A stretch of 27,048 nucleotides of DNA from Pseudomonadota bacterium. Lineage in GTDB: Bacteria; Myxococcota_A; Polyangia; Haliangiales; Haliangiaceae. Of this stretch, positions 901-4,973 are shown one piece after another. The first letter of the stretch is position 1. The number at the start of each line of letters is the position of its first letter. Where the stretch lies: positions 1 through 27,048 of the forward strand of contig JACTMV010000308.1 in assembly GCA_014584455.1 (NCBI GenBank), given 5' to 3'. A program made the position numbers and the translations under genes. The notes under the pieces were generated by a model. It was given only the letters and a program-made list of their open reading frames with translations, did not search any database and was not told where the DNA came from.

Positions 901-1911
901 TCAGGCGGCGCGCTCGTCCAGGTGCCGCCGCACCAGCCGCGCGCACCACGCGATCGCGCCGGTCGCCAGCAGCAAGCAGACGACGAACAGCGGCAGGCCC
1001 TGGGCGCCGTCGAGCGTCGCCCGCCACTCGATGGCGTGGGCGCGATCGACCTCGCGCAGCGCCGCCACCGCGAGGAACAGCGCGACCGCGCCGACGGTGG
1101 CCAGCCGTCGCCCCGCCCGCCCGCGCCCGCCGGCGAGCGCGATCATCCCGGCCGCGGTCACCGCCGCGCCGCTCCCCGCCAGCACCAGCCACGGCGTGGC
1201 CATCGCCGGCAGCTCGCCGGCGCGCCCGCCGACCGTCCCCACCGCCGCCGCCGCCGCCACCGCCAGGCCGGTCAGCCCGAGCCCGCCCAGGCGGCGCAGC
1301 TCGGCGCGTCCCGCCCGCGCCCCGGCCAGCCACGCCGCGCCGGTCGCGAACGCCACCGCCGCCAGCCCCAGCCACAGCGCCAGGCGGACGGCGATCACCG
1401 GGTCGCGGTGGAACACGCGCCCGTCGCGGTAGTGCGCGACCCAGGTCTCGGCGCCGGCCGCGGCCAGGGTGTGCTCCTCGATCCACGACCACGCGACGAA
1501 GAGGAACGCGAGCAGGGCGGCGCCGCTCACCAGCCCCCGCCGCGCCCCCGACCACGCCCGCGCCCGCACGCTCTTGCCCAGGTACAGCAGGTAGAAGCCG
1601 GCGATGAGCGCCGGCACGATCGCCATGAACCGGTGCGACATGAGGAGCGTCGCCGTGTACACGCGGTGCTGGTAGAGGACCTGGATCAGCAGCAGCGGCG
1701 CCACCCCGGCGGTGATCGCCGCGCCGAGTGCGAACGGCAGCCAGTCGCGGGCCGCCGCCGCCACCGGGTCGTCGCCGCCGACGAGCGCCCGCGCCGTCGC
1801 CCACGCCGCCGCGCCCAGCACGAAGCCGACGAGCAGCGCGTGGGCGGCGAAGGTGACCACGAGCAGGAGCACGTAGCCCCCCGGGCCACCGAGCTCGGCG
1901 AACAGGCTCAT
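901..1911 (-). CDS. Polytopic integral membrane protein (336 aa), probable partner subunit of the upstream cytochrome-fusion protein
   Basis: This is the C-terminal 336 codons of track ORF 901..5040, starting MSLFAELGG. It consists of successive Ala/Leu/Val/Gly-rich hydrophobic segments. Its ATG (1909-1911) overlaps the TGA (1908-1910) of the upstream gene as ATGA. The rest of the 1379-aa track ORF is Arg/Gly-rich shadow frame. Confidence 0.7.
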   Translation of the reverse strand: MSLFAELGGPGGYVLLLVVTFAAHALLVGFVLGAAAWATARALVGGDDPVAAAARDWLPFALGAAITAGVAPLLLIQVLYQHRVYTATLLMSHRFMAIVPALIAGFYLLYLGKSVRARAWSGARRGLVSGAALLAFLFVAWSWIEEHTLAAAGAETWVAHYRDGRVFHRDPVIAVRLALWLGLAAVAFATGAAWLAGARAGRAELRRLGGLGLTGLAVAAAAAVGTVGGRAGELPAMATPWLVLAGSGAAVTAAGMIALAGGRGRAGRRLATVGAVALFLAVAALREVDRAHAIEWRATLDGAQGLPLFVVCLLLATGAIAWCARLVRRHLDERAA

Positions 1912-3383
1912 CGCGCACCCCCGCGCCCGCCACCCGTGGCCTCGCCCGGCGGCCGCGGCCGCTCCGGCGCCGGCGCGGTGCCGGCCTCGTCGAGCCAGCG
2001 CCCGATCTGCGCCAGCGCCACCGGGTCGTCGGACACCGGCCAGGCGGCCGGCGCGCCCGCCGCCTCCCAGCGGATGAGCTGGGCCACCGCCTCGACCTCG
2101 GTCGCCGGCCCGGCGAACGGCGGCATGAAGCCCTTGGTCTCCTGCAGGCGCGCGATCGCGATGCGGAGCTGCTCGAGCGACCAGGCGCCGCCGAGGTGGA
2201 CCAGGCCGTTGGCGCCCTTCATCGTGTGGCAGGCCGCGCACTGCAGCCGCACCACGCGCGCGCCGAGGGCGAGCTGCGCCGTCGGGTAGCGCGCGGCGTC
2301 GCGCAGCGGGTACGGGTCCCGCGCCACCGAGCCCTCGGCGCGCAGCCGCGCGACCTCGGCCGGCGCGATGGCGTTGGAGTACAGGACCTGGCGGATCGTG
2401 AACGGCTTGCGCGCGCCCTCGCGCACGAACTCGCCGGCGGCGGTGGCGCCGAACGCCAGCGCCAGCAGGAGCGCCGCGGTCGCGCCGCTCACGTACAGGC
2501 GCCGCCACCAGATCCCGACGAGCGCGTAGGCGCCGATCAGCAGCGACGCCCCGGCGGCCAGGGCCAGGAACATCGACATCGCGACGCTGCCCCCGGTCAG
2601 CCACGCCCGGCTGTCGGCGGGGATCACCGCCACGTACCACAGCCCCAGCGCCGGCATCGCCGCCATCGGCACCAGCAGGCGCGCGGCGCGGGCGAGGAGG
2701 GCGTGGCGCGCGGCGCGGTCCAGGTCCATCGTGTTGATGACGGCGATCGCGGCCAGCGCCCCCAGCGTGCTCGACACCGCGACCCGGTAGAGCAGCGACG
2801 GCCAGAAGCTGGGGTTGAAGAAGCCGGCCCACACGTCGCCGGAGGCCAGCCACGCCCCCGGGGTGAGCTGCCACGACAGGATGCCGTTGATCCAGAACAG
2901 GCTGCCGAACGACGCCAGCGCGTAGGTGGCGAGCAGGCGCAGGCGCACGCCGTCGGGCAGGCGCTCGCCGTAGCGCAGGAACATGTAGCCGGCGACGATC
3001 TCGACCGCGAAGCAGCACCACTCGATCGCCCAGATCCAGTGGAACTCGTCGACCATGAGCCCGATCGTGCGCGGCCCGACCTGGATCGTCGTCAACCACA
3101 TCGCCACGCCGGTCAGGGCGCCGGTGACGAAGCTGACCAGCACCAGGTACTTGAAGAAGCTGTCGAGGAAGCGGCGCGCGTCGGGCACGCCGCGCCCGGC
3201 CAGCCACTGGAAGTACGTCATCAGGAACCCGCCGCCGATCGCGAACTGGGCGAGGAAGACGTGGAGGATGCCGACCGCGCCGATGACCATGCCGCGCATC
3301 GCCGGACCGAAGTCGTTGACCGGGTAGGCGGTCGGCTCCATCCCCGCTGGGATGATGCCACCGCCGGCGCCGGCATGCGTCAT
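1908..3383 (-). CDS. Polytopic membrane protein (possibly cytochrome bd subunit-I-like) fused to a C-terminal mono-heme class I c-type cytochrome domain
   Basis: 491-aa ORF with about 9-10 hydrophobic segments by eye. The C-terminal soluble domain has the heme-binding motif CAACH and a downstream FMPPF Met ligand candidate. The N-terminal part has a TM1 His (GILHVFLAQF) and IWAIEWCCFAVEIV, which resemble CydA TM1 and TM3 motifs. An alternative start is Met15 (3341). Confidence 0.75.
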   Translation of the reverse strand: MTHAGAGGGIIPAGMEPTAYPVNDFGPAMRGMVIGAVGILHVFLAQFAIGGGFLMTYFQWLAGRGVPDARRFLDSFFKYLVLVSFVTGALTGVAMWLTTIQVGPRTIGLMVDEFHWIWAIEWCCFAVEIVAGYMFLRYGERLPDGVRLRLLATYALASFGSLFWINGILSWQLTPGAWLASGDVWAGFFNPSFWPSLLYRVAVSSTLGALAAIAVINTMDLDRAARHALLARAARLLVPMAAMPALGLWYVAVIPADSRAWLTGGSVAMSMFLALAAGASLLIGAYALVGIWWRRLYVSGATAALLLALAFGATAAGEFVREGARKPFTIRQVLYSNAIAPAEVARLRAEGSVARDPYPLRDAARYPTAQLALGARVVRLQCAACHTMKGANGLVHLGGAWSLEQLRIAIARLQETKGFMPPFAGPATEVEAVAQLIRWEAAGAPAAWPVSDDPVALAQIGRWLDEAGTAPAPERPRPPGEATGGGRGGAR

Positions 3384-3428
3384 CGCGTCGCGGCGATCCG
3401 CCGGCCGCGTGGCTCGCCCCGCCTTCGC

Positions 3429-4973
3429 TCAGGGCGCGAGGCGGGCGACGAAGGCGTCGGGCCTGGCCAGCTTGGCGCCCTCGGCCTGGACCGCGGTCGG
3501 CCCGCCGGGGACGAGATCGAGCGTGAAGCGGTAGGCGCCCGAGACGTAGGGCGTGCCGTCGCGGCCGATGGCCACCGCCAGCCCGACGTCCTGATCCTTG
3601 GCCCCCCAGCGCCGGCTCCACGCGTGGTTGCCGGCGGCGTCGAGCTTGAGGAAGAAGCCGTCCATGTAGCCGGCGGTCTTGAACGGGCCACCGCCGAGGT
3701 CGATCGTGGTCTCGAAGCCGCCCACGACCACCAGGTTGCCGGCGGCGTCGGTGGCGACGCCGAGCCCGACGTCGGCGCGCTCGCCGCCGTAGGTCTTGAC
3801 CCACAGGAGCTTGCCCTCGGGCGACAGCCGGGCCACGAACACGTCGGACTCGCCCTTCGACAGCACCGGCGTCCCCAGCACGTCGAGGTCCTTGTCGAAC
3901 GAGCCGGTGATCACGACGTGGCCGGCGGGGTCGACGGCGAGCCCGCCCGCCCGCTCCTGGAACGGGTTGCCGAGGCGCACGCTCCACACGTGGTTGCCCA
4001 CCGCATCGAAGCGGGCCACGAACAGGTCGTCGTCGCCGGCGCTCTTGTGGGTGGTGCCGCCGAGCGTGATCGTGCCCTTGAAGCGGCCGAGGGCGTAGAT
4101 GTTGCCGGCGGGGTCGACGGCGACGTGGCTCACCTCGTCGGGGTACTCGCCGCCGAGCTGGGTCACCCACTCGACCTCGCCGCCGGCCCCGAGCTTGACC
4201 AGCGCCGCGTCGTCGCCGCCGCGCGAGGTCACGGTGGTCGCGCCCAGCGCCACCTCCTGGCCGAACGACACGGCGACGATCCAGCCGCCGTCGCCGGCGG
4301 CGGCGATGGCGGTGGCGGCGTCGGAGGCCGGGCCGCCGGCGGTCCACAGCCACTGCACCTCGCCGGCGGGGTCGAGGCCGACCACGAACAGGTCGTCGGA
4401 GCCGGTCGCCTTGCCGCTCAACCCGCCGGCGGTGACCGTGGCCGAGAAGAGCCCGGTGGCGGCGACGTTGCCCTTGTCGTCGACCGCGACCGCGTCGCCC
4501 CGCTCCTCGTGCTTGCCGCCGATCGTCGTCACCCAGGTCACCGCGCCGCTGGCGTCGAGGCGGGCGACGAAGGCGTCGCTCTTGCCGGCCGCGGTGCGCG
4601 CGCCGGCGCCGGCGAAGGTCGCGGCCTCCTCGAAGTCGCCCACCGCGTAGACCGCGCCGTCGCCGCCGACCGCGAGCCGCCGCACGATGTCGACCCGGGT
4701 GCCGCCGAGGCTCGTGACCCAGGCCACCGCGCCGGTGGCGCCCGGCGGCGACTCGGCCAGCGGGGGCAGCGGACGCGGCGGCGGCGCCACCCGCGGCTCG
4801 GCCGGCGCCGCGCTGCCGGAGGCGCTGCCGGACCCGCTGCCGGCGCCGTCGCGCTCGACCTTGCCGGCCCCGGCCTTGCCGGCCGGCTCCTTCTTGCCGC
4901 AGGCGACGAGGGGAACGGCCAGGGTCAGCGCGACCGGGCCGACGAGGGCGAGCGAGACGAGGCGTGTGCGCAT
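3429..4973 (-). CDS. Lipoprotein with a seven-bladed SBBP-type beta-propeller
   Basis: Signal peptide plus lipobox (LAVPLVAC-G). A Shine-Dalgarno sequence AGAGGA lies 3 nt upstream of the ATG. Seven ~55-aa repeats follow the pattern D-x-F-V-A-R-L-x(3)-G-x(3)-W-x(5-15)-A-V-D-x-x-G-N-x(4)-G-x-F. A final DAFVARL strand could close the propeller. Confidence 0.85.
   Translation of the reverse strand: MRTRLVSLALVGPVALTLAVPLVACGKKEPAGKAGAGKVERDGAGSGSGSASGSAAPAEPRVAPPPRPLPPLAESPPGATGAVAWVTSLGGTRVDIVRRLAVGGDGAVYAVGDFEEAATFAGAGARTAAGKSDAFVARLDASGAVTWVTTIGGKHEERGDAVAVDDKGNVAATGLFSATVTAGGLSGKATGSDDLFVVGLDPAGEVQWLWTAGGPASDAATAIAAAGDGGWIVAVSFGQEVALGATTVTSRGGDDAALVKLGAGGEVEWVTQLGGEYPDEVSHVAVDPAGNIYALGRFKGTITLGGTTHKSAGDDDLFVARFDAVGNHVWSVRLGNPFQERAGGLAVDPAGHVVITGSFDKDLDVLGTPVLSKGESDVFVARLSPEGKLLWVKTYGGERADVGLGVATDAAGNLVVVGGFETTIDLGGGPFKTAGYMDGFFLKLDAAGNHAWSRRWGAKDQDVGLAVAIGRDGTPYVSGAYRFTLDLVPGGPTAVQAEGAKLARPDAFVARLAP

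Follow-up and report, generated by a model that had tools for sequence, protein, structure and literature searches.

Members of the cytochrome bd superfamily have been split into qOR, OR-C, and OR-N on the basis of phylogenomics (Murali, Gennis, and Hemp 2021, bioRxiv 10.1101/2021.01.16.426971). OR-C is defined by the absence of a quinol site, by a CydA of eight helices that is extended at its C-terminus by a periplasmic portion with CxxCH motifs, and by the retention of H19, E99, and E107, and its gene lies next to that of a paralogue, OR-C1b; these proteins are listed in Myxococcota and Planctomycetota, and cytochrome c is proposed as their donor (bioRxiv 10.1101/2021.01.16.426971). Here, we describe a locus of this kind in a stretch of 27,048 nucleotides (nt; the window) from a Pseudomonadota bacterium that GTDB places in the Haliangiaceae of the Myxococcota_A (assembly GCA_014584455.1, contig JACTMV010000308.1). 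Judged by sequence, 2 adjacent minus-strand genes of the window, B and C, are an OR-C1a/OR-C1b pair, i.e. belong to a family named in 2021, because every testable published feature is found in them: the Q-loop and H186 are missing, a CxxCH motif follows the eighth helix, there are eight helices, and a paralogue is adjacent. The assignment rests on the published feature list and on profile matches, not on the hidden Markov model classifier or the tree of those authors. We put the probability that B and C are the two subunits of an OR-C1-type member of the superfamily, acting as a cytochrome c-fed O2 reductase, at about 0.8.

The window has a G+C content of ~75%, and its sequence recurs with a 100% match in another assembly, labeled as an "uncultured delta proteobacterium" metagenome-assembled genome (MAG; locus L001 below). 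Three open reading frames (ORFs) follow each other on the minus strand, first A, a propeller lipoprotein gene, then B, then C. Residues of B are numbered from the longest ORF (491 residues), while the 46-member alignment used below counts from Met15 of that ORF, i.e. 14 is to be subtracted. The features are as follows.

3429–4973, minus strand: gene A, SBBP-type beta-propeller lipoprotein, 514 residues (ORF list, Pfam SBBP, lipobox, repeats)
3351–3360, minus strand: noncoding motif TGGCATCATC, 10–19 nt upstream of ATG 3341; candidate -10-type element or regulator site
1908–3341, minus strand: gene B, OR-C1a-type CydA homologue fused to a cytochrome c domain, 477 residues
2379–3341, minus strand: CydA-like membrane domain of B, eight transmembrane helices (AlphaFold2 model)
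3261–3263, 3021–3023, 3000–3002, and 2418–2420, minus strand: key residues H41, E121, E128, and E322 of this domain
1974–2291, minus strand: cytochrome c domain of B, periplasmic, class I (CAACH motif, PF13442)
1908–1911, minus strand: B–C junction ATGA, in which the stop of B overlaps the start of C (read from the sequence)
901–1911, minus strand: gene C, OR-C1b-type partner subunit, 336 residues, nine helices, CydA/CydB fold

A CydA-like subunit with a fused cytochrome c

Gene B matches Pfam PF01654 (Cyt_bd_oxida_I) over residues 38–246 with 47.5 bits (cut-off 26.2) and the class I cytochrome c family PF13442 over residues 370–435 with 27.6 bits (cut-off 27). The heme-attachment motif CAACH (2226–2240, minus strand; residues 382–386) lies after the eighth helix, and M420, in the motif MPPF, is the likely methionine axial ligand. 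The AlphaFold2 (AF2) model of B, with a mean predicted local distance difference test score (pLDDT) of 78.7, presents eight long helices and then a small helical domain; the link between transmembrane helices (TM) 6 and 7 is only ~14 residues long in this model.

Sequence searches of the PDB with B alone, a narrow B profile, or a C profile returned only cytochrome c6 or chance G protein-coupled receptor matches. A broad B profile built from 46 diverse family members (22–60% identical to B) matches CydA of Geobacillus (5doq_A, HMMER) with an E-value of 4e-20 across profile positions 14–319, as well as CcoP, QcrC, and c6 chains. In the alignment with 5doq_A, the Q-loop is an insertion in CydA relative to the B family, and a conserved arginine of the latter (R200) stands where CydA has H186, the ligand of heme b558. 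The same alignment pairs the B motif fvREaiRkPY with YLAEVGRQPW of CydA, hence E322 and R325 of B, which sit in GEFVREGARKP, correspond to E445 and R448 of Escherichia coli CydA. Using hhalign against E. coli CydA, H41 is paired with H19, E121 with E99, and E128 with E107 (probability 89.7% with the broad profile), and the 7-residue spacing of the 2 glutamates is the one reported for OR-C1a. Among the 46 members, H41, E121, E128, E318, R321, E322, and R325 are at least 90% conserved, and P327, C382, C385, H386, and M420 are invariant.

By these profile matches, B is a member of the cytochrome bd subunit I (CydA) superfamily that keeps the predicted residues of the bd di-heme active site and has lost the quinol-oxidizing part, i.e. 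the Q-loop and the heme b558 histidine. In the model, the cytochrome c domain stands where the ninth helix of CydA would be. Given the even number of helices (eight), this domain and the active-site hemes are predicted to share one side of the membrane, a topology that we base on the comparison with CydA and on the positive-inside pattern.

The paralogous partner and its pairing with B

Gene C has no match in Pfam or NCBIfam, and all 87 of its homologues are labeled "hypothetical protein". Its AF2 model is confident (mean pLDDT 89.3, predicted template modeling score 0.89) and shows nine long helices in a bd fold. When the C family is compared with the broad B family using hhalign, the probability reaches 90.1% (E-value 1.6e-6) along 267 collinear columns, in which H24 of C is paired with H41 of B, and R286-E287-x-x-R290 with R321-E322-x-x-R325. 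In a set of 150 sequences, the C profile also matches several distant B-type proteins along TM5–TM8 (E-values of 1e-5 to 1e-7). The kinship is supported by hhalign only with the broadened B profile, as comparisons of the narrow C alignment with the narrow B alignment, or with single E. coli CydA or CydB sequences, are not significant. H24 is near-invariant among C proteins, while H147, K113, R286, E287, and R290 are invariant within the clade, and glutamates of the E99/E107 type are absent. Taken as profile and model evidence, C is a diverged paralogue of B that has the same predicted fold and stands in place of CydB.

A scan with one genome per species yields 333 loci with a relative of B; all neighborhood counts given here refer to the best 80 of these 333, which by record title comprise ~47 Myxococcota or "delta", 26 Planctomycetota, and 7 others (including Eiseniibacteriota and Tectomicrobia). 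A homologue of C lies directly downstream of B and on the same strand in 75 of the 80 loci, the remaining 5 ending at a contig edge, i.e. B and C are adjacent in 75/75 testable loci from at least 4 phylum-level groups. Of 73 loci in which a candidate start of C could be set against the stop of B, 32 show an overlap of 4 nt and 19 an overlap of 1 nt, and in 9 more the two lie 0–5 nt apart; our script took the codon nearest a 4-nt overlap, and these counts are hence biased towards overlaps. In most loci, the C profile begins to align no more than ~10 nt from the stop of B. In the window, the ATG of C (1911–1909) overlaps the TGA of B (1910–1908).

The pair also occurs in other arrangements. Three independent fusion proteins of ~800–860 residues (P0221, P0297, and P0298) carry a CydA-like domain, a cytochrome c domain, and an OR-C1b-like domain in this order, with the match to the C profile in the C-terminal half (E-values of 1e-22 to 1e-29); these proteins should be useful for structural work, and they are evidence on topology. 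The B profile has 985 matches with E ≤ 1e-3 in a library of representatives at 50% identity, of which 233 reach E ≤ 1e-30. Among the matches listed, 105 representatives are full length, and these have one CxxCH motif in 58 cases, two in 19, and eight in 17. The proteins with eight CxxCH motifs that are retrieved, the type that has been described for Desulfovibrionia (bioRxiv 10.1101/2021.01.16.426971), have ~830–890 residues and E-values of 1e-45 to 1e-76. In 2 of these 8-heme forms, both of 885 residues (one from Calditrichaceae and one from a Deltaproteobacteria MAG), a gene of 359 residues lies directly upstream with a 1-nt overlap, and both of these partners match the C profile along its full length with 115 and 104 bits (1e-37 and 1e-33), respectively. 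The occurrence of the pair in both gene orders and as a fusion is strong sequence evidence that B and C form one complex.

Across the 80 loci, no further gene is found conserved beside B and C across phyla among the neighborhood clusters; many recurrent clusters are antisense or out-of-frame ORFs of high-G+C DNA, and these were discarded. The neighborhoods also bear on the idea that B and C belong to another kind of redox complex, as membrane subunits that interact with quinone in the manner of NrfD/PsrC, the probability of which we regard as close to negligible. An NrfD-type assignment was rejected, as the best structural match is not to NrfD-family chains, and no molybdopterin or iron–sulfur partner family stands out among the gene clusters shared by the 80 loci, none of which was searched with such partners as the target, or appears in the 2 gene tables read for the mono-heme clade.

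The initial annotation of this DNA had proposed a tightly coupled membrane complex with periplasmic entry of electrons through heme c, which finds support in the 75/75 adjacency, the overlaps, and the three fusions, and its ATGA stop/start overlap at 1908–1911 is confirmed by reading the sequence. It had also called the module neither recognized nor characterized. The first half of this statement is out of date, since the pair matches OR-C1a/OR-C1b (bioRxiv 10.1101/2021.01.16.426971), and the second half holds: in the searchable literature we find no biochemical work on any OR-C enzyme, and later papers merely cite the classification.

The propeller gene, the start of B, and the upstream region

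In the product of gene A, the lipobox reads LVAC (Cys25), and seven repeats of ~61 residues run from W85 to the C-terminus. It matches Pfam SBBP at 1.3e-7, and NCBIfam NF047494 (LipL53-type SBBP lipoprotein) partially, with 118.8 bits against a cut-off of 400. A seven-bladed propeller lipoprotein is thus a reasonable reading of its sequence.

A homologue of A is present within 6 kb upstream of B in 8 of the 80 loci, all of them from close Kofleriaceae-type relatives in which B is at least 71% identical, and it directly abuts B in four (L001, L004, L005, and L029). In locus L003 (B 86% identical), ~4 kb with opposite-strand genes separates the 2 genes, which suggests a recent insertion. Within this spacer (L003, 1928–5962), ORFs resemble, by eye, an ADP-ribosylglycohydrolase, an IS200/REP-type transposase, and a Ser/Thr kinase.

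We considered whether all 3 genes work as one unit, in which the propeller lipoprotein would assist B–C in the periplasm or dock its electron donor. The common strand, the short gap (45–87 bp), and the lack of a terminator-like hairpin between A and B speak for such a unit, as does the presence of the propeller gene on the same strand within 6 kb upstream in 7/7 testable relatives with a B at least 80% identical. However, the other 72 loci, those of Planctomycetota all included, lack the propeller gene; in L003 it is ~4 kb from B, with opposite-strand genes between them that include the Ser/Thr kinase; a conserved promoter-like motif lies in the gap between the 2 genes; and no redox motif is present in the propeller. 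Overall, a 3-gene unit is very unlikely, and gene A is, by its distribution, a lineage-specific neighbor outside the conserved module and with no demonstrated role. The propeller as a core subunit was rejected on its presence upstream in 8/80 loci only and on the ~4-kb distance in L003.

The start of B is also best revised. The longest ORF spans 1908–3383 (491 residues, from ATG 3383), and its closest homologues start at Met15 (MEPTAY...). Between ATG 3383 and ATG 3341, the 42 nt of DNA are kept among close relatives (TGGCATCATC) but reading frames differ; specifically, L004 has an in-frame stop and L005 a GTG start in these 42 nt upstream of Met15. Gene B therefore most likely starts at ATG 3341 (477 residues) and not at ATG 3383, because homologues begin at Met15 and the frame of the upstream 42 nt is not kept; the 491-residue start was rejected on the same evidence. 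The gap between A and B is 45 bp with ATG 3383 and 87 bp with ATG 3341.

These results alter the initial annotation in several respects. The ORFs, their tight packing, and the ATGA overlap all stand, but its start of B gives way to the likelier ATG 3341, and the 45-bp gap that it placed after the propeller gene is correct for ATG 3383 only. Gene order, the conservation of which had been proposed as a check, is conserved for B–C (75/75 testable loci) and not for the propeller (8/80), and a conserved trio with a periplasmic propeller accessory is not supported, as the propeller is restricted to close relatives.

The sequence just upstream of B contains a recurrent motif. Loci from Myxococcota carry TGGCATCATC[CG]AA (in the closest clade) or GTAGCATC[CG]AA at this place, with the start codon 5–13 nt further on. 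The motif TGGCATCATC or GTAGCATCC precedes the B start in L002–L040 (Myxococcota), and neither form is seen in the Planctomycetota loci. More generally, 26 of the 65 loci tested have T[AG]GCATC at 30–48 nt ahead of the conserved YPVNDFGP anchor, compared with ~0.4 expected by chance. These 26 loci are related and are not independent events; nevertheless, their flanking sequence has diverged. The motif is present alike with a propeller, a kinase, or an M15 peptidase gene upstream, and the reading frame across it is not kept.

T[AG]GCATC is a candidate -10-like element that would give a very short leader, i.e. a near-leaderless mRNA; it can be read as a -10 element because the hexamer fits TAnnAT. 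A regulator site is equally possible. Either way, the pattern suggests that B–C may have its own promoter. A scan of this 75% G+C region with the sigma-70 consensus found no promoter. A terminator scan found none between A and B, its two terminator-like matches both lying inside genes, and the RNA fold of the A–B intergenic region is no better than that of shuffles (z = -0.64). As neither the scan nor the fold shows a terminator or a stable hairpin between A and B, read-through transcription from A into B is possible in this organism.

Elsewhere in the window, 2 plus-strand ORFs are divergent from the propeller gene: one of 68 residues (5102–5308), with no family match and called in two assemblies, and one of 733 residues (5323–7524), with HEAT repeats and a C-terminal cyclophilin-type prolyl isomerase. 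Further on, a protein of 845 residues (9000–11537, plus strand) matches the Major Vault Protein shoulder (PF11978, 89 bits) and the vault repeat (PF17795, 32.7 bits), and by these matches it appears to be a bacterial homologue of the eukaryotic vault-particle protein. An Rfam search of the window gave no match.

Proposed function and comparison with known oxidases

The most likely function of B–C, as read from its conserved residues, is that of a cytochrome c-dependent O2 reductase. In the mechanism we propose, a periplasmic or membrane-anchored c-type cytochrome would reduce the fused heme c of B, which would replace heme b558 as relay. Electrons would then pass from heme c to a pair of b595-like and d-like hemes held by H41, E322, and E121, where O2 would be reduced to water with protons drawn from the cytoplasm via an E121/E128/S161 pathway; such a turnover would separate charge without pumping. 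The overlapping stop and start codons would lead to B and C being made in fixed proportion, and the 2 genes are probably transcribed from their own promoter just upstream of B.

Several observations weigh against this proposal. No OR-C enzyme has been characterized biochemically in the searchable literature, and O2 is proposed as the acceptor solely on the strength of conserved residues. In B, an arginine (R147) stands at position H126 of the proton pathway, and the AF2 model of B is moderately confident at best (mean pLDDT 78.7). Multi-heme relatives are reported from strict anaerobes, e.g. Desulfovibrionia, for which O2 respiration is not an obvious role. Lastly, AhpC-TSA, AhpD-like (CMD), and LysR genes lie just downstream of B–C, in convergent orientation, in ~24–26 of the 80 loci, all from Myxococcota, a linkage that could point to peroxide handling and not to respiration. 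One example of this AhpD-like/AhpC-TSA/LysR arrangement is L081 (10363–12436); in the organism of the window, an M23 peptidase gene takes the place of AhpC/AhpD and is followed by the LysR gene (L083, 12439–13359).

We therefore weighed whether B–C might mainly be a cytochrome c-dependent peroxidase or a detoxifier in oxidative stress (of H2O2, or of NO), and not an energy-conserving terminal oxidase. Besides the genes immediately downstream in ~24–26/80 loci, the LysR gene that also lies two genes downstream in the window's organism and the anaerobic sources of multi-heme relatives would fit such a role, and a quinol peroxidase activity has been reported for cytochrome bd of E. coli (PMC4899803). 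By contrast, AhpC and AhpD are on the opposite strand and confined to Myxococcota, a linkage that shared ancestry explains equally well, and they are absent both from the Planctomycetota loci and from the window. Furthermore, the conserved E121/E128/S161 proton pathway fits four-electron reduction of O2 at least as well. On balance, a primarily detoxifying role is quite improbable, and an O2 reductase is the reading we retain.

A separate question is whether C binds its own heme(s), which would make the complex a heterodimer with redox centers in both subunits and not one with a heme-free, CydB-like scaffold. This is possible because H24 and R286/E287/R290 match the positions of H19 and of E445/R448 in CydA, but on present evidence we consider it unlikely. 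If C does hold heme, electrons would take another path through the enzyme, or there would be a second site of catalysis; either might be tied to peroxide defence, as the AhpC/AhpD/LysR neighborhood hints.

If OR-C enzymes work as proposed for B–C, they are bd-type oxidases fed by cytochrome c instead of quinol, and would offer electrons of the cytochrome c pool a third way to reach oxygen, beside the aa3-type and cbb3-type oxidases. To our knowledge, no OR-C member has been purified. The mono-heme clade is large, with >1,300 clusters at 90% identity sharing words with B and 333 species-level genomes matched, and its presence in aerobic Myxococcota and Planctomycetota, including the cultivated strains Polyangium fumosum DSM 14668 and P. 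jinanense SDU13 (loci L070 and L051), makes the proposed activity directly testable. For annotation, the assignment gives a name to gene C, so far a "hypothetical protein", and corrects "ubiquinol oxidase subunit I" labels on B.

Among described systems, OR-C1 is the closest. It shares with B–C an eight-helix CydA-like subunit with equivalents of H19, E99, E107, and S140, the shortened glutamate spacing, the lack of a Q-loop and of H186, a heme c motif after the last helix, and a paralogous second subunit next door. Differences are found in the number of CxxCH motifs, with one in this clade compared with up to eight in the Desulfovibrionia-type reference proteins, and in gene order, which is B then C here, whereas in both 8-heme loci that we read the partner precedes the 8-heme gene. 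In addition, the E445/R448-like motif (REGAR) is at least 90% conserved here, while the table of the authors gives "-" for E445, and the partner has nine predicted helices as opposed to the eight they state.

Canonical CydAB (E. coli bd-I, 6RKO; Geobacillus, 5IR6) resembles B–C in its active-site heme ligands, its proton-pathway glutamates, and its two-subunit, pseudo-symmetric architecture. In contrast to it, B lacks the Q-loop, the histidine that binds heme b558 (H186), and a ninth helix, electrons are predicted to enter B via the fused cytochrome c and not from quinol, and C keeps a CydA-like histidine in TM1 and an RExxR motif, both of which E. coli CydB lacks. A further parallel is CydAA' (qOR4a/qOR4b) of Caldivirga maquilingensis, in which the second subunit is likewise a CydA paralogue with an equivalent of H19 and without the proton-channel glutamates; CydAA', however, is archaeal and quinol-oxidizing, has no heme c, and stems from an independent duplication.

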